Assembly (NCBI GenBank): GCA_049599475.1
Contig: JBMYOQ010000019.1
Span: forward strand, 1 to 56,055
DNA length: 56,055 bases
Direction of reading: 5' to 3'
From: Opitutales bacterium
GTDB taxonomy: Bacteria; Verrucomicrobiota; Verrucomicrobiia; Opitutales; JABSRG01
The notes beneath the pieces are model-generated. The model was not told the origin of the DNA, made no database searches, and saw nothing but the letters and a program-made list of their open reading frames with translations. The position numbers were made by a program, and so were the translations under genes. This document shows, in pieces, positions 16,121 through 49,900 of the stretch (position 1 is its first letter; each line of letters begins with the position of its first letter).

Positions 16121-16348
16121 ACCAGTATTCAGCACGATCTGTGCATTATTCTAACTTAAATACCGAGAGTCGGCTGAGTGGCCTTTTGCTAATAATTTTC
16201 GAATCCATCTCTCGGATATAAATCTAGTTTTGAGTCAACCGTAAGGGAGGTGCTGCCAATGAGTTCGACGTTTTTCAGAGCGCTATGTGAAACCCGTGTG
16301 CCTTTCTCCAAAAGGGCCAAATTATCATCGCGGGATGGATCCAGGGGA

Positions 16349-21159: not shown

Positions 21160-21813
21160 ATGGCGAATATCTTTCCAAGATGGGTTAACACCATACCGCT
21201 CAAGGTAATCGTAGGAATACTCCTCACGGTTACCTCGATTATTGCGGGTATCACTTATTACTTCACTCCGAAGTATTCCCGTGTGGGATACGCTCCGACT
21301 CAGCCAGTGGCTTTCGACCACAGTCTGCACGTCAATCAGCTCGGGATGGATTGTCTTTACTGTCACCAGGACGTGGACAAAGCAGCTCACTCAAATGTTC
21401 CGTCGACGAACACATGTATGAACTGCCATAGTATCGTGAAGACAGATAGTCCGAAGCTTGCGCCTATCCGCAACAGCTACGAGTCGGGTGAGCCAGTCGA
21501 TTGGGTACAGATCCACAAGACGCCGGATTACGTATACTTCAACCACGCTGTTCACGTGAATCGTGGTATCAGCTGTGTGCATTGTCATGGTCGTGTCGAC
21601 GAAATGGAAGTCGTGCACCACGCCGAGTCTCACTCTATGGCGTTCTGTTTGGAGTGTCACCGCGAGCCTGAGAAATTTATTCGTCCTGTTGATGAAGTCA
21701 CAAACTTGGCTTGGTCAGCTGGAAGCGAAGCTGAACAACTCGAACTGGGCAAGAAGCTCGTTCATGAATGGAACGTAAACCCTCCACTGAGCTGCTCAGG
21801 CTGCCACCGATGA
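21160..21813 (+). CDS. actA: Alternative complex III pentaheme cytochrome c subunit
   Basis: N-terminal TM, QPVAFDHSLH, five CxxCH motifs (CLYCH, CMNCH, CVHCH, CLECH, CSGCH), PDYVYFNH. Confidence 0.93.
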   Translation: MANIFPRWVNTIPLKVIVGILLTVTSIIAGITYYFTPKYSRVGYAPTQPVAFDHSLHVNQLGMDCLYCHQDVDKAAHSNVPSTNTCMNCHSIVKTDSPKLAPIRNSYESGEPVDWVQIHKTPDYVYFNHAVHVNRGISCVHCHGRVDEMEVVHHAESHSMAFCLECHREPEKFIRPVDEVTNLAWSAGSEAEQLELGKKLVHEWNVNPPLSCSGCHR

Positions 21814-24800
21814 GTAAGAAAATTTATACACATCCCGAACCTGCTGAAGGCGATTTGGTAGGACCACGCTACTGGAAAAGCTTGGACGAGCGCGCGGAGA
21901 CTCCTGAATTCAAGGAGTGGCTTGAGCGCGAATTCCCGGAAGGCGCTTCCGAGATCGAAGGCGTTGATCGACGCAACTTCCTAAAGTTGATGTCAGCATC
22001 TTTTGGTTTGGCTGGACTCGGTATGGCTGGCTGCCGCAAGCCGCGCCGCCACATCCTGCCATACTCAAAACAGCCTGAATACACGCCAGTCGGTGTCCCT
22101 GCTTACTACTCCACATCGTTCGAGATGGCCGGAGAAGCTACACCGCTCATCGTGGAAACGCACGGTGCGCGCCCTACTAAGATTGAAGGCAACCCGAGTT
22201 ACTTGCCTTATGGCGGTTCCACAGGATCTCACGCTCAGGCGAGCATCCTTGAGATGTATGATCCAGAGCGTTTGACTGATTCAATCGTGGATGGTGGAGC
22301 AGCTTCTAAGGCAGCTGTTGTTGATTCTTTCAAAGCAATCTCGGCGTCAATGATGGCGAGCAAGGGTGCAGGATACGCAATTGTTTCGCGCAAGAGTTCC
22401 TCACCGACACGCCATCGCTTGATCTCTAAGGTCAAGGCGTCCTGCCCAGAACTTTCTGTCCTCGAGTATGAGGCTGCTGATCAGACAACACCTGAAGCGG
22501 CCCTCTCGAAATATGCGGGCAAGCCAGTTAAGCCTATTTATAAATTGGCGAAGGCGAAGCGTGTTTTGTCTCTAGCAAGTGACTTTGTAGGAGGTGAATC
22601 AGGTAACTTAGCGCTTTCCCGCGGTTTTGCGGATGGTCGACGCGTAGATACTCCAGAAGAAGCTAAGAAGATGAACCGCCTGTACATGGTGGAGCCAAAC
22701 TTCACGCTCACTGGCGGTATGGCAGATCACCGTTTGCGTCTTGGCCTTTCTCAAATTCCTGCATTTACAGCTCTCGTAGCTGCGGAGGTTTTCGAGCTCG
22801 CTCACTTCGGATCAGACCTAGTTGCGACACTCAAGGCAAAGGGCGCTTCACTTAAGGTAGATGCTGCTTGGGTAAAAACATGTGCTGCAGACCTTTTTGA
22901 AAACAAGGGATCTTCAGTTGTCGTCGCTGGAGCCAGCCTATCGGAAGAAGTGCATGTTCTGGTCGCCGCTATGAATGCGGTGCTCCAAGCGGAAGGTAGT
23001 CTCGTAAAGTATGTCGAGAGTCAGCCATCTGCATCGACTACAGAACTTTCATCGCTTGTATCCAGTCTCCAGGACGGAAGCGTAAAGCACGTCATCATCC
23101 TTGAAGGTAATCCTGTATTCGATACGCCAGCCGGTAGTGGATTTGCAGATGCCGTCAAGTCTGCTGAGACCGTGACTGCACTTTCTTACTACGAGACTGA
23201 AACGACTTCTGTCGCGACTTCGTGTATCGCTGAATCTCACTATCTTGAATCTTGGGGTGACGGTCGTGCTTACGATGGAGCAGTGGTTCCTGTCCAGCCC
23301 ATGATCGATCCTCTCTTCAAGACGTTTACAGCTATCGAGTTGTTGGCAGTCTTGGCGGGTGAGTCTGATATCAGTGGATATAATCTTGTCCGATCGACTG
23401 TAGACGGATTGGCCTCTGGCGATAAGGGCAAAGCATTCAAGCGCTTCCTCACTGAAGGTGTTCTGGATGACAGCGAATATCCAAAGGCTAAGCTCAGCAT
23501 TGCTGCTGAGAAGCTCGCAACTTACGCTTCGGCGATTGTAGACGCACCGATGTTGGGTAGTGACACACTCGAGGCGGTGTTCACTCCGAGTGCTCAACTT
23601 TTCGACGGACGTTACGCCAACAATGGATGGTTGCTCGAGTGTCCAGATTCCATGACCAAGCTTACTTGGGACAATGCGATTCTGATCAGCCCACGTTTGG
23701 CTAAGGAGCTGCAAGAACGTGATGGCGTGCAAATTATGCCCGGTGCCGGTCTCATGCAGTCATGGGGTAAATTCCGCACAAATGTCGACAATGCGAAATT
23801 CAAGCGCGGTAAGCAAGAGGCTCCTGTTGCCGAGCTTACAGTCGAAGGTCGCACAATCAAAGCACCCGTTTACGTGCTCCCCGGTTTGGCAAATTACAGT
23901 CTGGTGCTCCCGTGTGGATACGGTCGCAAGGTTGTCGGTCGCGTAGGCACTGGCGCTGGTTTTGATTTTTATTCAGTTAAGCCATCCGAGGCTTCTGTTT
24001 CCACAGATGTTCAGATCAAGCTTACAGAAGAGGTCCACATTCTTGCTAATACACAAGAGCACTGGTCCATGGAAGGCCGCGCGATCGTGCGTGAGTCTAC
24101 TGCGCAATATTTCAAGAAGACTCCAGATTTCGTTTCCCAAATGGGTATGGAGTCACACTCACCACCGGTGTATGGAGCCGATAAGGACAAGCCTATTGAA
24201 TATAAGGCTACCGAAATCCCTCGTGGTGGCTCGCTCTATAAGACTCCTGAATTCACTTACCCACAGCAGTGGGGAATGACCGTAGACTTGAATGTGTGCA
24301 CCGGCTGCAATGCTTGTGTCATTGCGTGTCAGAGTGAAAATAATATTCCGATCGTCGGTAAGGACCAAGTCCTTCGTGGACGTGAAATGCACTGGGTGCG
24401 CCTGGACCGCTATTTTGCTGCAGATGTAGATTCTGATCCACACATCAACCACAGTGCTTCTGCCGATCACGGTAGCGCTATGGATGGTTGGCATGACGGT
24501 GTTCCTGAAGATGTCCAAGTGACATTCATGAACGTAGCTTGTCAGCAGTGTGAGCTCGCCCCATGTGAGCAGGTTTGCCCGGTAAATGCGACCGTTCACG
24601 ATGACCAAGGGTTGAATGTAATGGCTTACAACCGTTGTGTGGGAACTCGCTACTGCGCGAACAACTGCCCATACAAGGTGCGCCGCTTTAACTTCTTTGA
24701 TTGGAACAAGCGCATGATTGGTGACTTCTACAAGGGACCGGTCGGAAAGCAAAGCCTCGAGCAGCCAAATGGCGAATTGCTCAAGATGCGCGCAAATCCG

Positions 24801-25262
24801 GACGTTACAGTCCGTATGCGTGGTGTCATGGAAAAGTGCACATATTGTGTGCAACGTATTCAAGGCGCTAAGATCCGCCAGAAGAGCCGAGCTAAGAACT
24901 CGGATGATATCCTAGTTCGCGACGGAGCGTTCAAGGTGGCGTGTCAGCAAGTCTGCCCAGTCGATGCTATCGAGTTTGGTGATATTGCTGACCCTAACAC
25001 GAAGGTCTCTAAGGCAAAACGCAGCAAGCGCGACTACTCGCTTCTGGGTTACCTAAATGCACGCCCTCGCACGACTTACCTTGCTAAGCTGCGTAATCCA
25101 AACCCAGCGATGCCGGGTGCTTACGCGAAACCTTACACCTACAAGGACTACAAAGAACGCTATGGTCATAAGGACCACGGAAGTTCCGGTGGGGACAAGC
25201 ACAGTGATCATGGTCACGACCACGATCATGACCACAACCACGATCACCATCCTGCACATTAA
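21810..25262 (+). CDS. actB: Alternative complex III subunit B (Tat-exported molybdopterin-oxidoreductase-like + Fe-S domains)
   Basis: YWKSLDE, EFPEGA, DRRNFLKLM Tat motif with MAGC lipobox, RPTKIEGNP, CTGCNACVIAC, CQQCELAPCEQVCP, CVGTRYCANNCP, MEKCTYC; ATGA overlap with actA; His-rich C-terminus. Confidence 0.94.
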   Translation: MSKKIYTHPEPAEGDLVGPRYWKSLDERAETPEFKEWLEREFPEGASEIEGVDRRNFLKLMSASFGLAGLGMAGCRKPRRHILPYSKQPEYTPVGVPAYYSTSFEMAGEATPLIVETHGARPTKIEGNPSYLPYGGSTGSHAQASILEMYDPERLTDSIVDGGAASKAAVVDSFKAISASMMASKGAGYAIVSRKSSSPTRHRLISKVKASCPELSVLEYEAADQTTPEAALSKYAGKPVKPIYKLAKAKRVLSLASDFVGGESGNLALSRGFADGRRVDTPEEAKKMNRLYMVEPNFTLTGGMADHRLRLGLSQIPAFTALVAAEVFELAHFGSDLVATLKAKGASLKVDAAWVKTCAADLFENKGSSVVVAGASLSEEVHVLVAAMNAVLQAEGSLVKYVESQPSASTTELSSLVSSLQDGSVKHVIILEGNPVFDTPAGSGFADAVKSAETVTALSYYETETTSVATSCIAESHYLESWGDGRAYDGAVVPVQPMIDPLFKTFTAIELLAVLAGESDISGYNLVRSTVDGLASGDKGKAFKRFLTEGVLDDSEYPKAKLSIAAEKLATYASAIVDAPMLGSDTLEAVFTPSAQLFDGRYANNGWLLECPDSMTKLTWDNAILISPRLAKELQERDGVQIMPGAGLMQSWGKFRTNVDNAKFKRGKQEAPVAELTVEGRTIKAPVYVLPGLANYSLVLPCGYGRKVVGRVGTGAGFDFYSVKPSEASVSTDVQIKLTEEVHILANTQEHWSMEGRAIVRESTAQYFKKTPDFVSQMGMESHSPPVYGADKDKPIEYKATEIPRGGSLYKTPEFTYPQQWGMTVDLNVCTGCNACVIACQSENNIPIVGKDQVLRGREMHWVRLDRYFAADVDSDPHINHSASADHGSAMDGWHDGVPEDVQVTFMNVACQQCELAPCEQVCPVNATVHDDQGLNVMAYNRCVGTRYCANNCPYKVRRFNFFDWNKRMIGDFYKGPVGKQSLEQPNGELLKMRANPDVTVRMRGVMEKCTYCVQRIQGAKIRQKSRAKNSDDILVRDGAFKVACQQVCPVDAIEFGDIADPNTKVSKAKRSKRDYSLLGYLNARPRTTYLAKLRNPNPAMPGAYAKPYTYKDYKERYGHKDHGSSGGDKHSDHGHDHDHDHNHDHHPAH

Positions 25263-25273
25263 TTTGATACGTC

Positions 25274-26758
<1,485 letters not shown>

Positions 26759-26761
26759 GAC

Positions 26762-27316
26762 ATGGCTGAAGATACACTACTTTCAGAAGAGACTTTCGGA
26801 GTGATCGGCACTTTTCATTCTGCGCCGGACATTTACGAAGCCTGTAAAAAGACCCACAAGGCCGGTTTCACCAAGTGGGACTCTTACACACCGTATCCTG
26901 TTCACGGTCTCGACAAGGCGAGCGGACAGAAGCGATCGATGGTCGGGGCTTTCTCGCTCGTCGGCGGTGTTACTGGGTTCACAGTGGCGAACATCATGGT
27001 TTGGTTCATGAACGCATTCGATTACCCATTGATCGTTGGCGGAAAGCCTTTCTACAGCCCAATTTTCCCTTTCCCAATTGCATACGAGATGACTATTCTC
27101 TTCGCCGCTTTCGGGACGCTGTTTGGGATGTTTGCCTTGAATCGTCTACCTCAGCACCACAACCCTCTGTTTAACTACAAAGAGTTCTATAAGTGCACCG
27201 ACGACACTTTTGCTATCTGTATCGAAGCGAAAGATCCGAAATTTGATGCGCGGGAAACCACCAAGTTCCTCGAAGATCTCGGAGCGCAAAACATTAAATT
27301 AATTCCTATTCTGTAG
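26762..27316 (+). CDS. actD: Alternative complex III subunit D (DUF3341)
   Basis: WDSYTPYPVHGLD, DYPLIVGGKP, PIAYEMTILFAA; position in operon. Confidence 0.92.
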   Translation: MAEDTLLSEETFGVIGTFHSAPDIYEACKKTHKAGFTKWDSYTPYPVHGLDKASGQKRSMVGAFSLVGGVTGFTVANIMVWFMNAFDYPLIVGGKPFYSPIFPFPIAYEMTILFAAFGTLFGMFALNRLPQHHNPLFNYKEFYKCTDDTFAICIEAKDPKFDARETTKFLEDLGAQNIKLIPIL

Positions 27317-27320
27317 GCTG

Positions 27321-27977
27321 ATGCGAATTTATCTAGCAATACTAGCTTTTGTCATCGTTGCGGTGATATCCTTCGCGGGATTCCGGGGCTCTCTGACAGA
27401 GAAAGAGAACATTATGATCTTCCCTGATATGGACTTCCAAGCGAAGTATCATCCACAGGGAGAGAGCGGCTTCTTCGCCGACGGTCGTGCGGATCGCCCA
27501 GCGCCCGCCGGGACAATCAAGCGAGGCGATGAACTCGCGCTCGCAGCTGTCTTCAGCTCTGAATACGAGAATGAAGCCATCGAAAATCCAGAGATGTATT
27601 CTGGTAAAGATGCCTCTGACGCATGGCTCAAAGAATTCCCAGTGACCGTTGACCGCTCGCTGATTGAGTTGGGCCAGAAGAAATACGACATCTACTGTCA
27701 AGTCTGTCACGGTGCAGCGGGTGATGGGAAAGGCATCACTGCTAATTACGGAATCGCTGCGGCTGCCAACTTCCACTCTGACCTCTATCGCCAGATGTCA
27801 CATGGTGAGATTTTCAACACTGTCCGCATGGGTAAAAACACCATGAAGGGCTACGGCGACAAACTGAACGCTGAGGAAAGCTGGGCAGTGGTCGCATACG
27901 TAAGAGCGCTTCAACAAGCCTTCTACACAACTGAGGCGGAACTTACTCCTGAATTGAAAGCAAAGCTGGGTCTATGA
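27321..27977 (+). CDS. actE: Alternative complex III monoheme cytochrome c subunit
   Basis: DMDFQAKYHPQ, FFADGRADR.PAGTIKRG, YCQVCHG, MKGYG, WAVVAYVRALQ. Confidence 0.92.
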   Translation: MRIYLAILAFVIVAVISFAGFRGSLTEKENIMIFPDMDFQAKYHPQGESGFFADGRADRPAPAGTIKRGDELALAAVFSSEYENEAIENPEMYSGKDASDAWLKEFPVTVDRSLIELGQKKYDIYCQVCHGAAGDGKGITANYGIAAAANFHSDLYRQMSHGEIFNTVRMGKNTMKGYGDKLNAEESWAVVAYVRALQQAFYTTEAELTPELKAKLGL

Positions 27978-29218
27978 ACGCTGAAGCTATATCTAAGAAA
28001 TTTTCCGGTCTGAGCCTGGGTATCGGTGTCGCTGGTATCGTGATCGCACTTGTGGGTGTGTTCATGGGAATCAACGAACACGAGCCACGCAACTTGATCA
28101 GCTATCTCATTGGAATCGCATTCTGGCTCTCCATTTTGGTGGGCATGCTTTTCCTTACCATGATTTGGCACACATTCGACGCTGGGTGGTCGGTGGTTGT
28201 TCGCCGCCAACTTGAGCACTTTATGGGAGGATTTAAATTCCTTCTGGTCCTTTTCTTGCCGCTCCTCGCGATCCCATTCTTGGACGATAAATACCAAGTG
28301 CTGTGGAAGTGGATGAAGTCCAGCTATGTTGCTGGTGATGTCATCTACGAAGCAAAAGCGATCTATCTCGACGAGATGTGGTTCGTCGTGCGCGCCCTGC
28401 TTTACTTTGCGGTCTGGATCGGTTTGGCGGAATGCTTCCGTCGCTTCTCTTTCACTCAAGATAAGGACGGAGATGCTAAGTGGACCTCCTTTAGCCGTAA
28501 GCTCGCCGCTCCAGGTCTCTTCTTCGGTGCACTCGCTACAACCTTCGCAGCTTTCGATTGGTTGAAGGGCCTCGAGTTTCACTGGTTCTCTACCATGTAT
28601 GGTGTCTGGTTCTTCGCAGGCAGTATGCGGGCAGCCCTTGCTGTGACAGTCTTGATATGTGTGTTCCTCGCGACCAAGGGATATTTGAAGGGGCTCTTCA
28701 ATCAAGCTCATCGCTACTTTCTCGGATGTCTCTGTCTGGCTTTCACAGTCTTCTGGGCCTACATCACTTTCTCCCAGTATTTCTTGATCTACATGGCGAA
28801 CATTCCGGAAGAGACTTTCTGGTATAATATCCGTGAGATGAGCGAGGACGGAGTGAAGAACTCATGGTGGTGGGTTAGTATGGCTCTGATCTTCGGACAC
28901 TTCTTCGGACCTTTCATCTACCTCCTTTTCTACAACTCAAAGATCCGTGTGAAGGCACTTGTTTTTGCCGCAGTTTGGATTCTTTGCTTCGGCCACATCG
29001 CCGATCTTTATTTCAACATCTTGCCTGGAAAAATTTACGACTCAGGAAGCATCTTGGGTTATCAAATTCGCCAGTTCATGCCGAATATCTTCGACCTCGC
29101 ATCCATCCTTGGTATCGGCGGTCTGATTTTCTGGGGATTCTTTCAGAGCATGAAGAAGCAGGAGATCATCCCAATTCGCGACCCACGTATTTTGGAGTCC
29201 ATCAACTACCACGAATAG
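27974..29218 (+). CDS. actF: Alternative complex III membrane subunit F
   Basis: AGWSVVVRR, AFDWLKGLEFHWFSTMYG, FWAYITFSQYFLIYMANIPEETFWY, PIRDPRI; ATGA overlap with actE. Confidence 0.92.
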   Translation: MNAEAISKKFSGLSLGIGVAGIVIALVGVFMGINEHEPRNLISYLIGIAFWLSILVGMLFLTMIWHTFDAGWSVVVRRQLEHFMGGFKFLLVLFLPLLAIPFLDDKYQVLWKWMKSSYVAGDVIYEAKAIYLDEMWFVVRALLYFAVWIGLAECFRRFSFTQDKDGDAKWTSFSRKLAAPGLFFGALATTFAAFDWLKGLEFHWFSTMYGVWFFAGSMRAALAVTVLICVFLATKGYLKGLFNQAHRYFLGCLCLAFTVFWAYITFSQYFLIYMANIPEETFWYNIREMSEDGVKNSWWWVSMALIFGHFFGPFIYLLFYNSKIRVKALVFAAVWILCFGHIADLYFNILPGKIYDSGSILGYQIRQFMPNIFDLASILGIGGLIFWGFFQSMKKQEIIPIRDPRILESINYHE

Positions 29219-29230
29219 TAAGGATTTAGA

Positions 29231-29533
29231 ATGGATCACGATTCACATAACGAGCCCTCTCAATACTCAAAGGTGTTCTCCTTTGTTGGTGTTCTTGGCT
29301 CGATGCTACTCTTTTTGGTCATCTTGATGATCACTTACATCCCGTCAGATAAAGAACCAGTTGGTGCCAATGTCAGTTCTCTACGTGAGGCGACCTTGGA
29401 AGAAAATTCTGCCGCGGATCGTAGGAAACTGAACGAAGTGAAGGCTGTGGACCCTGTCGCTGGTATTTACAAGATTCCAGTGTCGGATGCCATAGAACTC
29501 ACCGTAGCCAAATTGGAAGGAGCGGCCCGCTAA
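29231..29533 (+). CDS. ActG-like small single-TM subunit of alternative complex III
   Basis: One TM helix followed by VDPVAGIYKIPVSDAIEL, resembling the (W)VD...G.vrIPi..Am.l motif of proteins encoded after actF. Confidence 0.7.
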   Translation: MDHDSHNEPSQYSKVFSFVGVLGSMLLFLVILMITYIPSDKEPVGANVSSLREATLEENSAADRRKLNEVKAVDPVAGIYKIPVSDAIELTVAKLEGAAR

Positions 29534-29540
29534 CCATAAC

Positions 29541-29741
29541 ATGGGGTGGATCGGTTATCTTCTAGTATTATTCTTTATCGCCGGCGTATTCTTCGTCGTC
29601 GCAATCTTCGCTTTGACCTGGGCTGCCAAGCGGGGTCATCTTCAACATTTCGAGGAGCAGTCAAAATCAATCTTTGATGAAGATGAGCCCGAGGGCATGG
29701 AACAAGATGCCTTTCCAACCAAGCGACCCAAGCATATCTGA
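29541..29741 (+). CDS. ccoS: cbb3-type cytochrome oxidase maturation protein CcoS/FixS
   Basis: TM helix then WAAKRGHLQHFEEQSKSIFDEDEP; directly upstream of ccoN. Confidence 0.8.
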   Translation: MGWIGYLLVLFFIAGVFFVVAIFALTWAAKRGHLQHFEEQSKSIFDEDEPEGMEQDAFPTKRPKHI

Positions 29742-29754
29742 CTTTTAATTACTA

Positions 29755-31218
29755 ATGAGCACTGTAGCTACAGCGCCATCTTCTGATGAGCCAATCACCA
29801 GCCCGCTTCCTAAGGAGCGAGTGACTTTGGCGCAGATCGATGAATCTGTGCGGGGTCCGGCTATCCTCTTTATTTCGACAGCCTGTGCATGGCTTCTCAT
29901 CGGAACCGTTTTCGCCTTGATTACCGCTTTCAAGGCTCACTCGCCTACCTTTTTGGGTAACACCGAGTGGCTGACGTTTGGCCGTGTTCGTGCGGCGCAC
30001 TTGAATTCCGTAGCATTCGGATGGTCCAACAACGCAGCGTTCGCGGTAATCCTTTGGCTGATGGCACGTCTTAGCAAAGTGCCTATGCAGCACGGCGGCC
30101 TCTTGTATGTAGCAGGGGCTTTTTGGAATGTCGGCGTGTTTGTCGGGGTGATCGGAATTTTGGCTGGCCAGTCGACCAGCGTTGAGTGGTTGGAAATGCC
30201 TAAGTATGTAGCTCCTCTGCTTGCCGTAGCTTATGTCTGCATCGCGGTTTGGGGCGTTCAGGTTTTCATTCACCGTCGTCAGCACTTCGTTTACGTATCG
30301 CAGTGGTACATCCTGGCTGCAATTTTCTGGCTTCCATGGCTCTACGTGATTGCCCAGATCATGATCCTTTATTTCCCCGCTCGAGGGGTGACGCAAAGTC
30401 TCACAAACTGGTGGTTTGCGCATAATGTCCTCGGTCTTTGGTTGTCGCCGATTGGGCTGGCTGCGGCTTATTACTTTATTCCAAAGGTCCTTGGTAAACC
30501 GATCCACAGTTACTACCTCTCGGTTCTCGGCTTCTGGTCCTTAGCGCTCTTCTACAACTGGGCAGGTGTGCACCACTTGATCGGTGGACCGCTTCCAGTG
30601 TGGATGGTCACAGCAGGAATCGTAGGATCTGTCATGATGGTGATTCCTGTAATCGTCACAGCCGTGAACCACCACTTAACTGTCGTGGGAAGTTTCAAAC
30701 AGGTCTGGGCGAGTCCTACGCTGCGCTTTATCGTGTTTGGTGCGATGTCTTACACTTTGGCGAGTTTGATCGGCTCATTCATGGCGATCCGCGATGTGAA
30801 CGAGATCACTCACTTTACCCACTTCACTGTCGGGCACGCTCACCATGGTGCCTACGCCTTCTTCACTATGGTGATGTTTGGAAGCATCTACTTTATGATG
30901 CCTCGACTTCTCAAACGGGAGTGGCCCTCTGCTACTTTAATCAAGGTTCACTTCTGGGCGTGTTCGGTAGGAATCACCGTGATGGTTGTGGCCTTGAGTG
31001 TCGGTGGTTGGATCCAAGGCTTGGAGATGAATAACCCTGAAATCACCTTCATCGAAACAGTCCGGAATACAATTCCTTGGCTGCAAGCTCGTTCAGTTTC
31101 TGGTGTCATGCTTACTGTAGGACACATTGCATTTGGTCTTAACTTCGCCTGGATGTTGGTCGGCTTCTTTGGCGCAAGTGAGAAAAAGGGCCCCACGCTT
31201 TTGTCATCAGACGCATAA
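29755..31218 (+). CDS. ccoN: cbb3-type (C-family) heme-copper oxidase subunit I
   Basis: FGRVRAAHLN, YVSQWY, WWFAHN, PIHSYYLS, FYNWAGVHH (helix VII Tyr + CuB His pair), HFTHFTVGHAH. Confidence 0.92.
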   Translation: MSTVATAPSSDEPITSPLPKERVTLAQIDESVRGPAILFISTACAWLLIGTVFALITAFKAHSPTFLGNTEWLTFGRVRAAHLNSVAFGWSNNAAFAVILWLMARLSKVPMQHGGLLYVAGAFWNVGVFVGVIGILAGQSTSVEWLEMPKYVAPLLAVAYVCIAVWGVQVFIHRRQHFVYVSQWYILAAIFWLPWLYVIAQIMILYFPARGVTQSLTNWWFAHNVLGLWLSPIGLAAAYYFIPKVLGKPIHSYYLSVLGFWSLALFYNWAGVHHLIGGPLPVWMVTAGIVGSVMMVIPVIVTAVNHHLTVVGSFKQVWASPTLRFIVFGAMSYTLASLIGSFMAIRDVNEITHFTHFTVGHAHHGAYAFFTMVMFGSIYFMMPRLLKREWPSATLIKVHFWACSVGITVMVVALSVGGWIQGLEMNNPEITFIETVRNTIPWLQARSVSGVMLTVGHIAFGLNFAWMLVGFFGASEKKGPTLLSSDA

Positions 31219-31239
31219 GGCCTTCGGAGGATTCGCATT

Positions 31240-31971
31240 ATGATGAAGAATTTTTATACTCTCTTTTTCGGGATCTTCTTTGCCCTGGCATTCTCCTTCA
31301 CAGGTTTGATTGTCAGTTCTGAGATCCAGCTTGGAGACCTGCAGCCAACCACCTCGACTCTCTTAGATGACGAAGGTAACGAAATTTTAGGCACCACTTA
31401 CTTCAAGACTCTTGAAGATGGTGAAAACATCGAGATTCCTGGCCTCTTAAATGTGGGTGAGCCCATGTATCCACAGGCTCCACTTGGACTCGCCCAGCGC
31501 GGTAAACAAATCTACATCGAGCAAGGCTGCATGTATTGCCACTCGCAGCAGGTGCGTGAGAAGGGGTTCGGTGCTGACTACGAACGTGGTTGGGGTGAAC
31601 GCCAATCTGTTGCCCGCGACTACATCTTGCAAGAGCGCGTACTTCTCGGGACGATGCGCACCGGACCAGATCTTTTGAACGTCGGTGACCGCGGTATTTC
31701 CCAGGATGGTGGAAAATGGCACCATCTCCATCTCTACAGTCCACAGATGGTTGTCGAGGGGTCTACGATGCCCCCGTTTGCCTATCTCTACGAAGAGCAA
31801 CCTATCAATGGAGCGGGATCTCCAGATGCCTTGGCAATCGACCCGGCTTCAGAATATGCTCCTCAAGAAGGCTACGAAATTGTGCCTACTGAAGATGCGG
31901 AGGCTTTGGTCGCTTATTTGTTGAGCCTCAAATTTAACTACGCTCTTCCTGAGTCGAAGATGGCCGAATAA
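31240..31971 (+). CDS. ccoO: cbb3-type oxidase monoheme subunit II
   Basis: [60 protein letters not shown]. Confidence 0.9.
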
Positions 31972-31983
31972 GGATATACTGAA

Positions 31984-32673
31984 ATGTCTGACAAAAACAC
32001 AGCGCATCCATTTTCCACAACGACCATTGAGCACGCGAAGGTCGGAGATGATGAAATCCAAACAATTCATGATCAGCTAGGCCGTGAGAAATCAGAGCCC
32101 AGCGAAGGATTTACTCCAGTTCCTATCTTTCTGCTTTTTGTTTTTTCAGGTCTCATCTTTTGGGGTGGTCTGTATTTAGAAAAAGCTTCAGGGCATTTCC
32201 GTTGGGATGCTTATTCGCCCGATTTCAAATTGGCGGGTCCGGGAGCTGGACCAACTGTAGATTACGAATCTGAAGAGTGGCTCATGTCGCGGGGTGAGCG
32301 CATTTATGCGCAGCAGTGTGTGCAGTGCCACCAAGAAGACGGTAATGGTCAAGTGGGAGCCTTCCCTCCTCTCGTGAACTCAGGCTGGGTTACAGGATCT
32401 GAAGAGAGAGTGTCTGCAATTTTGATTTCAGGTCTTGCCGGACCAATTGAGGTGAACGGCAACACATACAACGGAAACATGCCAGCCTTCGGAGGCGTTA
32501 TTCGCGATCGCGATATAGCCGCCGTTTTGTCTTATATTCGCCGCTCTTGGGGGAATTCAGCTGATCTGATTACCCCTTCTGAGTTTGATACTTACAAGGC
32601 GGGTGCTTCTGGAAGCAGCAGTGGGCAATGGTCTGCTGAAGGGCTCGTCGCTGAGTTTGGTCCAGTAAACTAG
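31984..32673 (+). CDS. Membrane-anchored monoheme cytochrome c (occupies the ccoP position)
   Basis: TM helix, single CVQCH, GAFPPL, YNGNMPAF, IAAVLSYIRRSWGN. Confidence 0.85.
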   Translation: MSDKNTAHPFSTTTIEHAKVGDDEIQTIHDQLGREKSEPSEGFTPVPIFLLFVFSGLIFWGGLYLEKASGHFRWDAYSPDFKLAGPGAGPTVDYESEEWLMSRGERIYAQQCVQCHQEDGNGQVGAFPPLVNSGWVTGSEERVSAILISGLAGPIEVNGNTYNGNMPAFGGVIRDRDIAAVLSYIRRSWGNSADLITPSEFDTYKAGASGSSSGQWSAEGLVAEFGPVN

Positions 32674-41671: not shown

Positions 41672-43117
41672 TTACTTCACCCCGGCCATTGCCTCGAGCT
41701 CTACCTTTGCGCCACCTGGAAGGTCTACAATCGGTAGGACGGTGAGTGCTGGGCGGTGAGTGGTCTCGGCTGCCTTAAAGAAATCTTCCAGCGCTTTTTT
41801 GACTGCGTCGGTATCGCGTTTGGTATTCGTCGCTTCGAGATAAACGCGAAGGTGGACGAGGTCGTCGAGAGTCGCTTCTGCCTCAGCAAGGCGTTCGGTA
41901 AGCTTCTCGAAACAAGCTTTTGTCTCCTCGGCTAGACTGAGTTCCTCTCCGGGTGCGATGACTCCAGACATCCACACTGTGCTGGCCTCGGCTGATACGG
42001 CGACCGCAGGGCTGGAAATCGCGTCGGACGTCCCAATAGCAGCGATGTGCGCATCCTCTTTGAAAAGTGATTCAGGCTCGGGGACGATCCCATACATTTC
42101 GAGGCTCATCAGAGGCCCAAGCTCGGCGTAACCAGGAGCCGACATGACGGTCCGCGTGGGTTTGTTTGTATTGCTGCTGTTGTTAAAATGTTTGCTGTAT
42201 TCGCGTCCGAACAGGCCGAAATTGCGGCCGATGGCTTGGCCCTTTTCAGGATACATGATGGTACGCATGAAGAATACATCACGGTAGCTGAGGTCGCCTG
42301 CTTTGAGGGATGCTGCTGTCTTGGAAAGGATCGATTTAGCCTGATCGGGCACCTTGCCATACATCATCGGGTTTACCGGCATGCCGGGAGGCATCTTGAA
42401 TTTGGTATCTCCCATGACTGCGGATCCAAAGAAGAGTGATTGGCCCGAGTCGACGGCTTTACCTGTGCTCATTGGGAAGTGCGAACGTCCGTATGATTTC
42501 CAAATAGGATGGGTTTCCTCAGCAGCACGCCCCGAGCGCTCGTAGTCGAGCCAGTGGCGACTGCCCTCTAAAAATGGGCCGCGACCATCTGGGAATACGG
42601 CCACGAATTCCACTTCGATTTTATATTGGGAAATGAACAAACGGCTGATGCCGACGGTTGTCCTTGCCGGTTTGTGAGGATTGTCCGGTGTTCCGAAAAA
42701 CTCGGTAAAAGCGCGATTCCAGCCATCGAAGTCGGGTGGAGACTCAGCATCGCCCACGACATATGCGCGTACATTCACGACGTCTCTTAGCGTCAGACCG
42801 ACTTCGTCGAGGTCGGAGGTGAGGGTAGTCATCACCTTGTGAGCCTGGGTGTAGGTGTCGCCATAGCGATCGTCATCATCCAAGGACTCGCGAGCGATCA
42901 CTTTGGAACGCGGACTCGCGGTAATACCCCACGTGAAGAATTTTGAGGCTCCTGGCTCGACTTTGACATATTTTGCGTAAGGTGCGCCGTCGAGGTCGAT
43001 CGACTCAATTTTGTCATTATAATTTGTGACCTGTGTGCCGAGAATAATTCTCAGGACGATCGCTGCCGCCAGGAGGACCAGCACGATCCAGAGGCGATGC
43101 ATGGGAAGTATTTTCAT
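41672..43117 (-). CDS. Membrane-anchored/exported protein composed of three tandem Rid domains
   Basis: N-terminal hydrophobic helix; repeats YGDTYTQ...GLTLRDVVNVRAYV...KPARTTV...IEVEFVA, YGKVPDQ...DLSYRDVFFMRTIM...KPTRTVM...LEMYG, and ATLDDLVHLRVYL...RPALTVL...VELEAMA. Confidence 0.82.
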   Translation of the reverse strand: MKILPMHRLWIVLVLLAAAIVLRIILGTQVTNYNDKIESIDLDGAPYAKYVKVEPGASKFFTWGITASPRSKVIARESLDDDDRYGDTYTQAHKVMTTLTSDLDEVGLTLRDVVNVRAYVVGDAESPPDFDGWNRAFTEFFGTPDNPHKPARTTVGISRLFISQYKIEVEFVAVFPDGRGPFLEGSRHWLDYERSGRAAEETHPIWKSYGRSHFPMSTGKAVDSGQSLFFGSAVMGDTKFKMPPGMPVNPMMYGKVPDQAKSILSKTAASLKAGDLSYRDVFFMRTIMYPEKGQAIGRNFGLFGREYSKHFNNSSNTNKPTRTVMSAPGYAELGPLMSLEMYGIVPEPESLFKEDAHIAAIGTSDAISSPAVAVSAEASTVWMSGVIAPGEELSLAEETKACFEKLTERLAEAEATLDDLVHLRVYLEATNTKRDTDAVKKALEDFFKAAETTHRPALTVLPIVDLPGGAKVELEAMAGVK

Positions 43118-43140: not shown

Positions 43141-44508
43141 CTAGCGTGATTGAAATTCTGGATACGCTTCTTGGCCGTGCTCTGCGATGTCGAGGCCCTC
43201 GATTTCTTCTTCCTCTGATACGCGGACTCCCATGACGATTTTGATGATGTAGAATAGGATGAAGGCTAAGACGAAGGCGAATATCGCGTAGCTCAAGCAG
43301 CCAACGAGTTGCCAAAGGAATTCGCTCGGCCCGAAAATGCCGACTGCGAGAGTGCCCCATGACCCACAGATACCGTGGACAGAAACTGCGCCCACAGGAT
43401 CATCTATACGGAGGCGGTCGAAGAATAGGATGGATAGGACTACGATGATTCCGGAAATGAAGCCGACGACGAGAGACATGGACGGCTCGATGCTGTCGGC
43501 CCCAGCGGTGATACCTACGAGTCCCGCTAAGACACCGTTCAGGGCCATAGAGAGGTCTGGCTTTTTCATTACGATCACAGTGGTGATCATACAGCCGATT
43601 GCGCCTGCTGCTGCAGACAAGGCGGTGGTCACAAACACACGGCCTACGAGCTCGGGGTCTGCACTGAGGACGGAGCCACCATTGAACCCGAACCAACCGA
43701 ACCAGAGAAGGAATACTCCGACGGCGGCCAGCGGCATGGAGTGGCCGAGGATAGGTTTTATGATTTTACCGTCTGCTCCGTATTTCCCGTGACGGGGTCC
43801 CAGGATTAAGATGGCTGCCAAGGCGGCGTAGCCTCCGAATGCGTGGACGATGGATGATCCTGCGAAATCGGTGAATCCTTTTTCGGCGAGCCAGCCACCG
43901 GAGCCCCAGGTCCATGATCCAGCCATCGGATATCCGAACATCACTATGAGTGCTGCGAACACCATGAAGCTGGTGAGCTTAATACGCTCAGCGACTGCAC
44001 CAGAGATAATCGAGGCGGCCGTCGCGGCGAACATTGCTTGGAAAATGAAGTCGGTCCAATAGGCGTAATACACGCCGGATTTGGTGGTCATCACCTCGAT
44101 GTTTTTCTCGGGGTCGATTCCTAGCCAGCCGCCGGTGTGGAAGAAGCCGTTGAAATTTTCCGCGGGATACATCGCGGAATAGCCCCATACCGCGTAGGTG
44201 ATCAAGCCGATCGAGATAATGAATACGTTTTTATAAATGATGTTTACCGTATTCTTGCTCTGGGTGAGGCCCGACTCGAGAGTAGCGAAGCCGAGGTGCA
44301 TCATAAACACCATTGCGGCCGATACGAGTAGCCAGAGGTTACTGACTGTGAAAAATGACTTCTCTCCGCTTAGGCTATCCTGCCATTCCTTGTAGGTTTT
44401 CTCGCTGGGAATAATTGGATCCGATATGGCGTGAAGGCCCGAATGGGCGGCGAGCAGAACTATGGCGATTCCGAGGAATCTTAGGAGGAGAGAAGCGGGC
44501 ATCTTCAT
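43141..44508 (-). CDS. amt: Ammonium transporter (Amt family) with N-terminal signal/extension
   Basis: MHLGFATLESG, FQAMFAATA, SGAVAER, DFAGSSIVH, LWFGWFGFNGGS, NGVLAGLVGITA, IDDPVGAVSVHG (twin His), EEEIEGLDIAEHG. Confidence 0.96.
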   Translation of the reverse strand: MKMPASLLLRFLGIAIVLLAAHSGLHAISDPIIPSEKTYKEWQDSLSGEKSFFTVSNLWLLVSAAMVFMMHLGFATLESGLTQSKNTVNIIYKNVFIISIGLITYAVWGYSAMYPAENFNGFFHTGGWLGIDPEKNIEVMTTKSGVYYAYWTDFIFQAMFAATAASIISGAVAERIKLTSFMVFAALIVMFGYPMAGSWTWGSGGWLAEKGFTDFAGSSIVHAFGGYAALAAILILGPRHGKYGADGKIIKPILGHSMPLAAVGVFLLWFGWFGFNGGSVLSADPELVGRVFVTTALSAAAGAIGCMITTVIVMKKPDLSMALNGVLAGLVGITAGADSIEPSMSLVVGFISGIIVVLSILFFDRLRIDDPVGAVSVHGICGSWGTLAVGIFGPSEFLWQLVGCLSYAIFAFVLAFILFYIIKIVMGVRVSEEEEIEGLDIAEHGQEAYPEFQSR

Positions 44509-44545: not shown

Positions 44546-45232
44546 CTATTCAGCCTGATTGGCTAAGAGGTAGGCGACCATAACGCCTGTGACTTCAGCG
44601 GGTAGCACGCCTTCCCAGGGTGGCATGCCTTTTTCGATGATGCCTTTCCAGAGGAGTTGCTCCATCTGTGAAGGCGTGGCGGCGTAATACCATTCGTTGT
44701 CGAACAATACGGTTGGACCTTCGCCTGGCATGTCTGGGCCGCCGTGACATTGTAGGCAGTAGGCCTCATACTGGTAGAAACCTTCTTCGACTTTCTCGGC
44801 GTCTTTGGACCATGCGAGGAGTTCGGCATCGCGGGCATCGTCTTGGGCGAGCGGTGGAATCTCAACCAAAGTAAATGGGCCCGTAGAGAGCTTGGTGCCT
44901 ACCGTTGGTGCAGCTTTACCAGCGAATGAAATATTGCCAGAGTCCTCAACCTTCGCAAGGACCAGATCGACTGCAGAGTCGATGGGGATCCGAGCGATTT
45001 TCTCTTCTGGGTTGATCCATTCGACCTTTCCGGCATCGCGTTTAGCTTTGGCAACATGGCTAGCCAGGGTTTCTTCGCGTTGAAGCTTGGTGGCTGGAGG
45101 CATGCTGGCGTCGCCGTCGTCAGACTTCAGGAAGCTGACACCAAAAATGGTTAACAGGATAAGAGCGCTTCCTGACAATCCGGTTAGGGTGAGGAGTCGC
45201 TCTTTTTTAGGAGATGTTTCTTCTGAATGCAT
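44546..45232 (-). CDS. Membrane-anchored monoheme cytochrome c with ActG-like N-terminal domain
   Basis: TM helix; WINPEEKIARIPIDSAVDL; single CLQCH; GP..FDNEWYY...KGIIEKGMPPW resembles CcoP-type cytochrome domains. Confidence 0.82.
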   Translation of the reverse strand: MHSEETSPKKERLLTLTGLSGSALILLTIFGVSFLKSDDGDASMPPATKLQREETLASHVAKAKRDAGKVEWINPEEKIARIPIDSAVDLVLAKVEDSGNISFAGKAAPTVGTKLSTGPFTLVEIPPLAQDDARDAELLAWSKDAEKVEEGFYQYEAYCLQCHGGPDMPGEGPTVLFDNEWYYAATPSQMEQLLWKGIIEKGMPPWEGVLPAEVTGVMVAYLLANQAE

Positions 45233-45295: not shown

Positions 45296-46888
45296 TCAAG
45301 CATTTACCCGGTCATAAATTTTCTTCACGGTGAAACGAGCGGCTTCGAAGGCGCCTGCTTGCCAACCACCCAGGTGAGACGCCCAGCTCGCGGCTATGTA
45401 AGTCTCGCGATCTCCATTTATGAGAAGCGGGTAGAAGGTCTTGATCATGGCCTTCGGGAAGTGCGCGAGGCAGCCCTCGATATTTGGCATAGTAGCCCAG
45501 TTGAAGGCGACGGCGCTCTCGAATTCTTCTCGATACTGCGGGTGGACTTTTTCGCCATGAGACATCGCAAATTCTATACGCTCCTGTGGGCTCATGCGGC
45601 CGACTTGGTCGCTGATTGGACCAAATATGTAGTAGCCGATCATGATACCCTTTTTGCTAAAGAAGCCATTGGAGGGATACCACTGCTCACCGATTGGAAG
45701 GTTGTTCCAAGAGATGCCGCCGTAGACGCTATCGTCCTCTTCCCAGAAGCGACGTTTGAACTGAATGCCGATTTTTCCTGAATTTTGGAAAGGAACGACA
45801 TTGAGCGCGTTCTTCATCATGAAGGGTAAGTCGCTCTGGAGCTTGCGAAGAATTGTGGGCGGAATGGTGCAAATGCAGTAGTCGCCCTCCATTTCTTTGG
45901 TCTGTCCGTCTTGTTCGTAGACGATTCGTGAACCGCCGCCGGAACGATGGCGGATTTCGGTGACCTTAGCTCCGTGAATGATCTTGCTGCCCACCTTGAC
46001 CTCAAAGGCTTTGGCAATCTTGTCCATGCCTCCAACGGGGGTAAACATTTGAGACATATACTCTACCTCGTTGGCGCGGTGGAAGTAGTTCCCGTATCCG
46101 GCTTTAAGGAGGTCCTCAAGCGCATATGGGTCGGCTAATTTACCTTCGTCGAATCCGCCGCCAGGCCATGTGTCATAGCCGCGCCGCGCGTGTCCTTCGT
46201 ATTTCTTACTGCGTCGGCCGAGGCCTCCTTCGTAGCGAAGGTAGTCTTGGAGCCGTTCGACATCTTCGGCAGTCATCGGAGAGTCGAGAGCCTCCTGATC
46301 GATACACTTGGAAAGTAACTCGGCGGTGTAGCCGCGGAGGTCTGTTTTGGCCTCGCGAATGCGGACGCGTTTGCCGGAGAGCGGGCCGCGATCGTCTCCT
46401 TCAGTATAATAAAATGCGTTTTCGTTGAGATTTACGAAAGGTTGGATCTCGACTCCCAATTCACGGCAATAATCCATGGTGATATGCCATTGGGGGAAAC
46501 GAGACGGCCCGGGGTTGAAATATTGCCCTTCGTCAAATTCACAGGTCTGGGTGGCGCCTGTTGTTTCGACAATTTTATCGCCGCGACGGATCGTGAGGCA
46601 GCGCCCGCCCGCCTTTGCTGCGGGCTCTAGAATCACGCTATCGATCCCGAGCTTCTCTAGTTCATAGGCCGCGCACATACCTGCGACGCCGGCGCCGAGG
46701 ATAATTACCTTGGCAGATTTTTCAGTGGGCACGCTATCCAGCTTTTCAAGAGCCACACCTTGACCAGAAGCGCGTGACATGAGGCCTAGGGCCGTCATAG
46801 CTGAAATGGCGGAACCGCCGTATTGACCGAGCCGAGCGACAAAGGCACGACGGCTCATCGGAGTAAAACCGTTGGGAAATTGGGACAT
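45296..46888 (-). CDS. Tat-exported flavin amine oxidase, L-amino acid oxidase family
   Basis: MSRRAFV twin-Arg signal; ILGAGVAGMCAAYEL, GGRC, QTCEFDEGQYFNPGPSRFPQWHITMDYCRELGV, MFTPVGGMD, RRFWEEDD.VYGG, WQAGA; resembles Rhodococcus-type LAAO as recalled. Confidence 0.88.
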   Translation of the reverse strand: MSQFPNGFTPMSRRAFVARLGQYGGSAISAMTALGLMSRASGQGVALEKLDSVPTEKSAKVIILGAGVAGMCAAYELEKLGIDSVILEPAAKAGGRCLTIRRGDKIVETTGATQTCEFDEGQYFNPGPSRFPQWHITMDYCRELGVEIQPFVNLNENAFYYTEGDDRGPLSGKRVRIREAKTDLRGYTAELLSKCIDQEALDSPMTAEDVERLQDYLRYEGGLGRRSKKYEGHARRGYDTWPGGGFDEGKLADPYALEDLLKAGYGNYFHRANEVEYMSQMFTPVGGMDKIAKAFEVKVGSKIIHGAKVTEIRHRSGGGSRIVYEQDGQTKEMEGDYCICTIPPTILRKLQSDLPFMMKNALNVVPFQNSGKIGIQFKRRFWEEDDSVYGGISWNNLPIGEQWYPSNGFFSKKGIMIGYYIFGPISDQVGRMSPQERIEFAMSHGEKVHPQYREEFESAVAFNWATMPNIEGCLAHFPKAMIKTFYPLLINGDRETYIAASWASHLGGWQAGAFEAARFTVKKIYDRVNA

Positions 46889-46995: not shown

Positions 46996-49900
46996 TTAGC
47001 GGATCGTCAGGGCTGAGAGGCTTTGCGCTGAATCTGTTTTATTGAGGGGGCCAAAAACGGGGTAAGCATATGCGTCGGGGGAAAAATACAGGTTTCCATC
47101 GTCGAGTACCCATAGGAGTTTTTCGATTTTTGTCTCATCTTGATAATGCATTGCTTTATCGAGTGATTCTACACCTATGGAATGGTTAGACAGGTCGGAT
47201 GATATTCTTATCCAGACCCTATTAGATCCTTCATCAGTGAAATTTTGCAGTGTTTCAAAATCTGAACTCTGCTCGATTACGAAGACTTCTCGGTCGAATT
47301 GAGCATCGAGCGCCTTGAGGTCGTCGGCGTTCATCTCTGAATGTAATTTGATAATGGACATTTGCGGGTTTGAGGCGTCCTCAAGAGCTTGAGCTTGTCT
47401 TGCCCATTCGGTTTGGCCTGAGGTCATGAATCTTCGTATTGCTTTTTTTCGGGAATCAGGATTCTGCCAATGTGCAGAAAATTCCCATTCGAGGTTTGGG
47501 GTCTGTAAGGCTGCATTGAACGATTCCAGAGGGACGCCGAGAGTCCTGAGGTGCTTGAGTGAATGTGTGGGTAAAAATTCTAGATTCTCAAGAGCAGTAA
47601 AGCTGAGATCGAGATCTGTCAGGGAGGTCTGTGCTATATGCGGGAAAGTTTCTATGGGGGTGTGAGATACGTCGAGTGTGCGCAGGTTTGGGGTGCGCGT
47701 TATAAATTCCGTATCCGAGATTCGAGTGTGGCTGAGCTCAAGTATGCGCAAATTGGGTAGAGGGCGGCTCCAGAAAATCTCGGCAATGGGCGTGTGAGAG
47801 GCCGATAGCTTACTGATGCCTTGGATCTCCTGGATCGATTGTATATCACTAATTTTGGTATGAGAAAGGTCTAGGGAATCGATTGAGAGGCCTGCTATGG
47901 CGTCTATGTCCTCAATAGGGTTTTCACTCAGATTGAGAGTCTCCAGCTTTTTTATATTGCTTGGGTTAAAGCCTTGTATGGAAGAGACTCGGTTTGATGC
48001 GAGGTTGAGTTCCTTTAGGGGGAGTGCGTTGAGTGGCTTTAAGTCTTCGATTCTATTGCCGCTGAGATCTAGGTGCTCGATAGGCATTTGGGCAATAGGT
48101 GATAGATCTGAAATACCACTGTTTCTGATTTTGAGAGCTTTCAGATTTAGGCTTTGTATTGGCCAAAAACTTACGGGCCCAATGGAACGATTCGTTTCGA
48201 TTTCTGTGAGTCCTTTGGTTTGTCCTAACCAATATATGAGCCTTTGTCCTTCTGAAACTATGGCATCCCGAGGCATGTTTCTCGCAAGCGTATCGGCGAT
48301 TTTCGTTTCAGGGTTGCTTCTAAATATATTGGGTAGCTTGGCGAGGGCCTGATCATATTTTCCGTCGTCCCAGAGCTTCCAGGTCTTGGCTTCCTCTTCG
48401 GTGCGTAAGAATTCGCTCTTTGCTGTACCTAAATATCCCGCTTCTCGAATCAGCAAATTTCTGTATGCGGATCCGTGTTTGTGATGAAGGTAGGCCGCCC
48501 TCTCGAATGCATCCGAGTACCATTTTCCCATTTCGGGATTTTGCATGATTGCTAGATATTCTCGTATGAGCTCTGTGGGGCCTGCGTTTGTCGCGAGGAT
48601 GTCGAGGCTTTGGATCGGGTCAGTATAAGCAGGACGGCGATATTGGTTGATCTCGAGATTTTGAATACTGATTGTCGAATTCTCTGAGAATTTGAAGGAT
48701 AGGTAGTTTTCACCGAAAGGCATCCATGGTAAATGGGGTGTTTTCAAAATCGTGCTGTTATCGATTTGGATGAGTAGGCCGTTCGGGGTGCTCTCAATTG
48801 TTAGCGGAACCGGACTTTGGTCCGTGGCTAATTGATAGGTATGCTCGCGTGTGATATTGAGGGTGGGGAGGCCGGGTGCAGACGATGAAACACTGTGAGG
48901 AGTCGATGGGTCTGCTGAAATGTGAATTTCGAGTATAGGTTGTTGAGTTTCTTCGATTGTGTTTTCGTTTACTAGTGTTACCTCAAATCCCCCTTTGAGC
49001 TCGCTGGTCGCTAGGTCGGCTTTTAACTGAAAGTATTTAAATTGTGGATGTGTGCTGAGGAATTCAATTGAACCGTTATCAGATTTTATAGCCTCAAAGT
49101 ATTTCGATATGTTGAAGTCTGCTGAGGTGAGATTCCCTGGATGGTTCAGTAATGGTGTCCAGTCGGTGTCGAATTTCTCGCGCGTAGATAGGGTGAAGTA
49201 GAAGAGGAGTGCTGTAAGGATGATGGATGCGATAGCAGTGTGCACGCGTGATTTGTTTCTGGAGTATGAACGGTCTACTCGATAGAGCCAGGTGCGCTTT
49301 CTTGCTGAAACTTCTTTGTTTTCTATTATCTTTCGAAGGTCGAGCGCTAGTTCGTTTAGGTCTTTGTATCTGTTCTCTGGATGTTCCTGACAGGCCTTCT
49401 GGCTTACGGCTTCTAGGTCTTTGTTGAATAGCCTGTTTTGCAGAAGTGCTATCCTTTGCTCCTCTTTGTGGATAGTTTTATTTGTCTTTAACTTCTCAAT
49501 GTTTGGCGTCAGGTGGGTTTGCGAGAGTTCTGTAGGGCAAGGGGTTTCCAGTAGGTGGGTGACCCATCTTAATATAATGCCGAGTGTGTATATGTGAGAA
49601 ACTTCAAGGACGGGTTCGTTATACCTTGAAACCTCAGGTGGGCTAAACAGGCACATCCCTTTGACTGTATCAAAATTTGCGTGACGATTTGTTAGTATTT
49701 TTGAGAACTGCCCTCTGCGCATTGATTCGGGAGCCCATCGAAAACATGATAGAAGCCAGCCGCGTTGTTCGTCTGCTAGGATATCATCCCACTGCAAGAT
49801 CGGGCGCGTGAGTTCGTTGTTGTAGGCAAAGCTGAGTCCGTCGCAGATCTGGATTATTTTTTGTAAGTAATAATCTCTGGTTGATATCTTGCGAATAGTT

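Follow-up and report, generated by a model that had tools for sequence, protein, structure and literature searches.

An ActG paralogue at the N-terminus of a cytochrome c from an amino-acid oxidation operon, and its possible docking on alternative complex III

Why does a cytochrome c encoded in an amino-acid oxidation operon begin with a segment that resembles a small subunit of the respiratory alternative complex III (ACIII)? The question is raised by one gene of the window, i.e. the whole stretch of 56,055 nucleotides analysed here. The original prediction proposed that this N-terminus replaces the ActG-like subunit of ACIII, docks an extra haem on ACIII/cbb3 and wires amino-acid oxidation into respiration. 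In our analysis, residues 1-97 of the fusion are a genuine ActG paralogue spanning the entire small protein. As to function, we lean towards a reading in which the fusion would accept electrons from an amino-acid dehydrogenase exported by the Tat route, while being held at the ActG site, close to where electrons enter the oxidase.

Gene clusters of the window

The fusion gene belongs to an operon in which flavoenzyme, cytochrome, Amt and Rid genes follow each other with gaps of 63, 37 and 23 bases. Its features, together with the domains of the fusion, are the following.

45296..46888, minus strand: L-amino-acid oxidase/dehydrogenase family (LAAO) flavoprotein with a twin-arginine signal, SRRAFV (PF01593; Tat motif read from the sequence)
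44546..45232, minus strand: ActG-cytochrome c fusion gene, 228 aa (relatives 40-73% identical over the full length)
44942..45232, minus strand: ActG-like domain, residues 1-97 (TM helix at about 14-32, long helix, beta-hairpin, C-terminal helix)
44921..45088, minus strand: predicted ActE/ActA-docking segment, residues 49-104 (co-fold interface list and conservation)
44840..44920, minus strand: linker, residues 105-131, no regular structure predicted (monomer model)
44549..44839, minus strand: monohaem class I cytochrome c domain, residues 132-228 (PF13442; CcoP chains as top PDB matches)
43141..44508, minus strand: ammonium transporter, Amt (PF00909; TIGR00836 above cut-off)
41672..43117, minus strand: multi-domain Rid-family protein with an N-terminal hydrophobic anchor (PF01042, two stretches)

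The ActG-like domain has no cofactor, the sole CXXCH of the fusion being located at residues 159-163, and a hydropathy peak of 1.9 starting at residue 14 corresponds to one N-terminal TM helix. Its secondary structure (helices 11-31, 49-68 and 84-98, strand 72-74) comes from a low-confidence model and agrees with the prediction for the stand-alone protein. The monomer model of the fusion has a mean pLDDT of 54, with values below 50 for residues 66-125; the linker differs among copies and is variable in G003 and G005. In the haem domain, M203 is invariant across copies and is likely the sixth haem ligand. This domain had been called CcoP-like, which agrees with its PF13442 match and with its best PDB matches, which are CcoP chains. 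However, compared with a canonical dihaem CcoP with a FixP N-terminal domain, the fusion has one CXXCH, matches PF13442 only and scores 18.9 bits with TIGR00782 against a cut-off of 180.

The best PDB match of the flavoprotein is 2jae, deposited as 'L-amino acid oxidase' (E 1.6e-97). Tat-exported flavoprotein amine oxidoreductases encoded beside a cytochrome c gene are mostly cytochrome-using dehydrogenases (PMC12224317), and both parts of this published predictor, the Tat signal and the cytochrome c gene 63 bases away, are found here. The sample of that study consists of NicA2-like enzymes, a clade other than the LAAO of the window, so the dehydrogenase assignment is carried over to the latter by extrapolation. 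Alternatively, the flavoenzyme could be a true O2-using oxidase for nitrogen scavenging, with the cytochrome in a side role such as peroxide handling or redox sensing. The oxidase name of 2jae would fit, as would the distant relative in G267, which has no adjacent cytochrome (another, in G230, has a dihaem neighbour); moreover, switches between oxidase and dehydrogenase are frequent and unreadable from sequence (PMC12224317). Yet the adjacent cytochrome c together with the Tat signal is the stronger predictor, and it points to dehydrogenase activity (PMC12224317), and mutants of Gluconacetobacter diazotrophicus in cytochrome c maturation lose most of the lao-dependent product (cited in PMC5053998). 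We regard a true oxidase as very improbable.

Two multi-domain Rid-family proteins are present in the window (41672-43117 and 14801-16135, both on the minus strand) and are 27% identical. The N-terminal anchor of the operon copy is kept in sister operons, suggesting a periplasm-facing imine hydrolase. Upstream of the flavoenzyme, a cyclase-like ORF (50332-51564) and a kinase-like/LRR ORF (46996-50295), both on the minus strand, form one 1,523-codon frame with a single in-frame stop at codon 411. The same adenylate/guanylate-cyclase-like/kinase locus is one 1,537-aa ORF in G003 and is split at another place in G001. As it lies immediately upstream of the flavoenzyme in all three, it may regulate the operon; a promoter scan gave a result at chance level.

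The respiratory genes are located on the opposite strand.

21160..29218, plus strand: actA-actF, alternative complex III core (Pfam/NCBIfam, synteny)
21160-21813, plus strand: ActA
26762-27316, plus strand: ActD
27321-27977, plus strand: ActE
29231..29533, plus strand: stand-alone actG, 100 aa (profile match to 8k9e_G; gene position)
29541..31971, plus strand: ccoS-like, ccoN and ccoO of a cbb3-type oxidase (Pfam/NCBIfam)
31984..32673, plus strand: monohaem CcoP-like subunit (PF13442; TIGR00782 45 bits, below the 180-bit cut-off)

Here actF is named by position and by weak likeness to ActC. The cbb3 operon had been said to lack a canonical CcoP, leaving a vacancy for the fusion. A dihaem CcoP is indeed absent from it, yet the P position is occupied by a gene for a monohaem CcoP-like protein. 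We found this gene in 31/32 loci, and the one locus without it runs into a contig end; most of those genomes have no LAAO operon, its flavoenzyme being found in 10 of 301 genomes of the order. Therefore, the fusion fills no vacancy, and we reject the reasoning from a missing CcoP. BLASTP between the fusion and the CcoP-like gene of the operon (31984-32673) gave negligible similarity. Across the order, the P subunit of the act-linked cbb3 operon (L025-L029, L077-L083, L108-L127) is CcoP-like and monohaem, and its CcoN is divergent, scoring under the NCBIfam cut-offs. Two act-like clusters from metagenomes (L205:3214-4731 and L207:4151-5668) show another arrangement: ActD and ActE are fused, and next comes a small monohaem cytochrome that is lipoprotein-like and akin to the haem domain of the 228-aa fusion.

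The ActG copy and its predicted docking site

The 100-aa protein is ActG, as filed by sequence and gene position. No Pfam or NCBIfam model matches it, and a PDB search with the single sequence gave no match; a 25-row profile returned ActG of Chloroflexus aurantiacus (8k9e_G) on top (E 4.7e-4), with E 0.016 for a 10-row profile. In all 32 loci read, the gene is flanked by actF directly upstream and by the cco genes downstream, and within the order the ActG profile finds a match in 156 of 301 genomes. A further act cluster, divergent and equipped with an actG, exists in three of the order's genomes (L242, L243 and L244), and these second copies also follow actF (3/3). The stand-alone model is extended (pTM 0.32), which makes fold searches uninformative: 8k9e_G ranks 50th with Z 4.3, level with unrelated coiled coils, and Foldseek found no match. 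Since ActG alone is not compact in this model, its conserved motif would more likely serve a partner than its own fold. Published ActG has no cofactor and one TM helix; it was unresolved in ACIII of R. marinus and called not essential (PMC5928083).

The relationship between the fusion and this protein was claimed on a gapless match of 46 residues with 16 identities, which our recount reproduces. Significance testing of the N-terminal domains supports it by three routes. BLASTP of the fusion against the 100-aa ORF aligns 26/96 identities (27%) with E 1e-11 in a single comparison. The local score of 109 was reached by none of 20,000 shuffles (maximum 64), and without the first 40 residues, which contain the TM helix, the score of 78 was again reached by none of 20,000 (maximum 61). 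Profile-profile comparison of the fusion domain with the ActG family gave a probability of 98.7% and E 1.9e-16, and HHalign 99.3% and E 3.1e-20 over 98 columns. Furthermore, a scan of the own genome (9,935 ORFs) with the ActG profile matched only these two proteins (E 9.6e-35 and 1.2e-15; next 0.29). With the fusion profile alone, 8k9e_G is absent among the 60 of 66 PDB matches listed, hence the link from the fusion to the Chloroflexus subunit runs via the stand-alone family. The fusion domain lies outside the act cluster, 15 kb from actG and on the opposite strand in the window, and on a separate contig in G001, G003 and G005.

What did the copy keep? We compared 8 fusion copies with 150 stand-alone ActG representatives (the best 150 of 6,317 matches). 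At overall identities down to 33%, the fusion copies keep R52, L56 and A87 in 8/8, and W72, I82, P83 and L90 in 7/8 each. The two glycines of the TM pattern quoted in the original prediction are family features and are retained, but its 'SD' is not common to the other copies. Towards the membrane the picture differs: Y36, found in 97% of the stand-alone proteins, occurs in 0-1 of 8 fusions, with loss of the membrane-end Y-[LI]-P-x-R-P motif and of the N-R-P stretch at 39-41, and F28 drops from 87% to 2/8. Also largely lost are G78 (88% versus 1/8) and Y70 (91% versus 0/8), the latter being absent from the ActG of the window as well. Conservation in fusions and stand-alone proteins correlates over positions 41-96 (Spearman 0.40, p 0.003), compared with 0.06 over the TM helix. 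The family's own plain ActGs, including 29231-29533, lost W72 and R81 typical of other ActGs, and fusion copies keep both, hinting at an old duplication or at a donor from outside the family.

Purifying selection acts on segment 49-97, which changes about as fast as plain ActG: between G000 and G001 the identities are 59% and 67%, respectively, with synonymous sites saturated. For other genome pairs, the periplasmic part of the fusion and plain ActG show 26 versus 41% and 29 versus 24% identity. Seven of the 8 copies score 46-57 bits with the ActG profile; the G003 copy, at 6.4 bits, is eroded and has neither W72 nor P83. From sequence, the retention pattern fits one binding surface kept and another relaxed, and it is also compatible with slow decay.

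The most serious competitor of the docking reading is a recycled anchor, in which the ActG copy would be a membrane anchor and spacer only, swappable with the N-termini of sister cytochromes, with no ACIII binding and a haem that finds the oxidase by membrane diffusion. The missing Y36/NRP membrane-end motif and the erosion in G003 speak for it. For a mere anchor, however, the periplasmic motif is superfluous, yet R52, L56, W72, I82-P83, A87 and L90 persist on the predicted ActE interface, and segment 49-97 is better conserved than the adjacent 37-48 (10/49 versus 0/12 positions conserved in at least 7/8 copies).

This interface comes from a co-fold of ActA, ActD and ActE (26, 32 and 32 alignment rows) with residues 1-104 of the fusion. 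The partner alignment comprised the 8 fusion rows only, which keeps the signal of stand-alone ActG out. A co-fold with ACIII subunits had been proposed as a check, and in this form it passed its controls: the score was 0.69, the best of 3 controls reached 0.00, the runs shared at least 83% of contacts and the partner pLDDT was at least 74. The score mark was reached by 116/157 solved complexes and 2/215 mismatched pairs, rates that are only rough for the present co-fold. The predicted interface involves mainly ActE (104-115, 131-142, 157-161 and 192-216) and an ActA patch (55-62), and the score falls to 0.00 when ActE is replaced. On the fusion side, the predicted interface residues of the docking segment are R52, L56, W72, R81-I82-P83, A87, L90, V91, G99 and F103. 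Partner interface positions are conserved in at least 7/8 copies more often than others (11/32 versus 1/24, Fisher p 0.006), an enrichment that is partly circular because the same alignment had been given to the model and the copies are related to one another.

Other observations weigh against docking. The TM helix and ActD lie outside the confident interface, and the interface positions of ActE show no extra conservation compared with the rest of ActE (0.60 versus 0.60, p 0.41). In addition, close cousins of true partners also pass such a co-fold (10/12 colicin pairs). Since a like complex, ACIII with ActG from Chloroflexus, is solved, the pass shows likeness rather than binding by the fusion copy, and it may derive from that likeness.

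Sister operons and distribution

The full-length fusion is found in 4 of 7 family genomes (G000, G001, G003 and G005). In all four it is located between the genes for the flavoenzyme, upstream, and Amt, downstream; Rid is next in three, and the contig of G005 ends before it. The flavoenzyme has no match in the other 3 family genomes (91-97% complete). Four more full-length proteins from the protein database (P0003-P0006) bring the total to 8 distinct copies. Plain actG is retained after actF in all 4 fusion genomes, which also have act and cco genes. The expected restriction of the fusion to ACIII genomes thus holds in 4/4, but the test has no power since actG is present in 7/7 family genomes.

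Outside the family, 6 operons (G054, G078, G118, G201, G611 and L101) have the same gene order and a related haem domain with another N-terminus. These N-termini are of three types, being either an unrelated TM helix or a start that resembles a signal peptide. With the ActG profile, five of the sister cytochromes score at most 3.9 bits and that of G611 has no match; ActG itself is present in all five of these genomes that were checked (G054, G078, G118, G201 and L101). Six sister operons with unrelated N-termini, five of them in ActG genomes, imply that ActG docking is dispensable. The ActG arm is a lineage-specific option and not a requirement, contrary to what the original prediction implied for the wiring of the flavoenzyme to respiration. 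Of the proposed adaptor at the ActG site, there remain a real paralogue, kept residues that lie mostly on the predicted ActE interface and a co-fold that passes; the need for the arm and the CcoP vacancy do not survive.

In the tree, 7/8 fusion domains group together (support 87/86) outside the family's own actG, on long branches, and the G003 domain is unplaced. In the LAAO tree a single origin is allowed, with weak support (59/65), and in the Amt tree 2 changes are required. These long branches and the three other N-terminal types that serve in sister operons add to the case for the recycled anchor, which we consider unlikely but worth keeping in view beside tethering at the ActG site.

The gene with the haem domain adjoins that of the flavoenzyme in 10/10 such operons examined, with or without ActG. 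A phylum search over 401 genomes (7 candidates scored per genome) matched 59, with the N-terminal domain covered in the own genome only, and the best four non-self matches of the haem domain are cytochromes of LAAO-Amt-Rid operons. Both facts stand against an inducible exit shuttle, which would dock at the ActG site and mainly carry electrons from ActE to another oxidase, the link to the flavoenzyme being co-regulation. For such a shuttle speaks that ActE was proposed as the exit haem of ACIII (PMC8552683) and that the genome encodes another cbb3 (G000:C91:104-3217), in which CcoN and CcoO are fused and CcoP is short and monohaem, as well as a third haem-copper oxidase subunit I (G000:C30:27092-28504). 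Overall, the shuttle appears quite improbable. These two further haem-copper oxidases could take electrons, which also weighs against docking, and cytochrome b/bc1 gave no match in the own genome.

Further searches for ActG fused to haem domains returned little. Among longer ActG-containing proteins there was 1 match, without a haem motif; as this search missed the known 228-aa fusions, it is insensitive. None of the metagenome loci (80/83 kept) has an ActG domain or a LAAO neighbour in the scan, none of 29 Acidobacteriota loci examined of 30 (one left out) has a haem motif after ActG, and no fusion occurs among the best 150 of 6,317 stand-alone ActG matches. Second ActG copies in G027, G102 and G185 were rejected as fusions because they sit in second act clusters.

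Proposed electron route and known systems

In the tethered-acceptor reading towards which we lean, the flavoenzyme would work as a periplasmic dehydrogenase that oxidises amino acids; hydrolysis of the imino acids would fall to the anchored Rid and import of the ammonium to Amt, as gene families and literature suggest. The reduced flavin would pass electrons to the monohaem domain. The ActG copy would anchor the protein by its TM helix and, as modelled, bind the region of the C-terminal helix of ActE at the usual site of ActG. On a tether of roughly 27 residues, the haem would then come within range of ActE or of the haems of CcoO/CcoP in the cbb3 oxidase encoded alongside. If the haem hands over at either place, amino-acid electrons would enter after quinol oxidation and ACIII would act as a mooring next to the oxidase. 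Upon operon induction, plain ActG may face competition from the fusion, or give way to it, on some complexes. This scheme assumes an ACIII-cbb3 supercomplex; the published ACIII supercomplexes are with aa3/caa3, not cbb3 (PMC8552683, PMC5928083). The replacement of the cytochrome N-terminus by an ActG copy in one family would be an optional refinement.

A bolder version, which we put forward tentatively and hold to be somewhat doubtful, treats the ActG site on ActE as an exchangeable socket: a substrate-induced paralogue would displace ActG and plug a dehydrogenase haem onto the ACIII-cbb3 supercomplex. If true, a respiratory chain would be re-wired by subunit swap, and the cofactor-free, 'non-essential' ActG would gain a role as docking module. 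That a second ActG copy keeps the predicted ActE face while bearing a haem of other origin points to ActG as the mark of a docking site and singles out the residues concerned. It would also offer a route for electrons of periplasmic amine dehydrogenases into respiration where ACIII is present and bc1 undetected. Sister operons with plain anchors provide built-in controls. The scope is narrow, as the fusion is limited to one small family, known here from genome assemblies alone.

Both building blocks have precedents, and the LAAO-cytochrome-Rid module is an already published kind of system. A lao-cccA-ridA cluster was described in G. diazotrophicus, where the cytochrome was proposed to help the redox reaction (PMC5053998). 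Judged by that description, in both a LAAO-family gene of the Tat type is clustered with genes for a cytochrome c and a Rid protein, and the window adds Amt, a multi-domain anchored Rid and an ActG-bearing cytochrome. In NicA2/Pnao-CycN and related cytochrome-c-using amine dehydrogenases, a flavoprotein amine oxidoreductase is likewise exported by Tat and its acceptor, a cytochrome c, is encoded in the operon (PMC12224317). In contrast to the fusion, these cytochromes are described with Sec signal peptides, none is described there as docking on a respiratory complex, and the substrate clade is different. We found neither an ActG-cytochrome fusion nor the operon of the window, nor an out-of-operon second ActG carrying the acceptor haem of a catabolic enzyme, in the literature, whose coverage was thin for subscription papers, including the main ACIII subunit surveys.

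ActG of Chloroflexus aurantiacus (8k9e chain G; also 8k9f, 8x2j and 9ilt) has, as here, a single TM helix followed by a helix, a hairpin and an 'IP..A..L' helix, and its gene follows actF as that of the stand-alone copy does here. The fusion differs as a second copy outside the act operon, with a haem domain attached and without the tyrosine motif that ActGs of its lineage have at the TM end. A parallel is found in Flavobacterium johnsoniae, where the N-terminal monohaem domain of ActA likewise places a haem c, tethered and membrane-anchored, where ACIII meets the oxidase; it is proposed to be mobile and to carry electrons from ACIII to the oxidase (PMC8552683). That domain, however, is part of a core ACIII subunit and carries the complex's own electrons to aa3 (PMC8552683), whereas the fusion is a separate paralogue from a catabolic operon.
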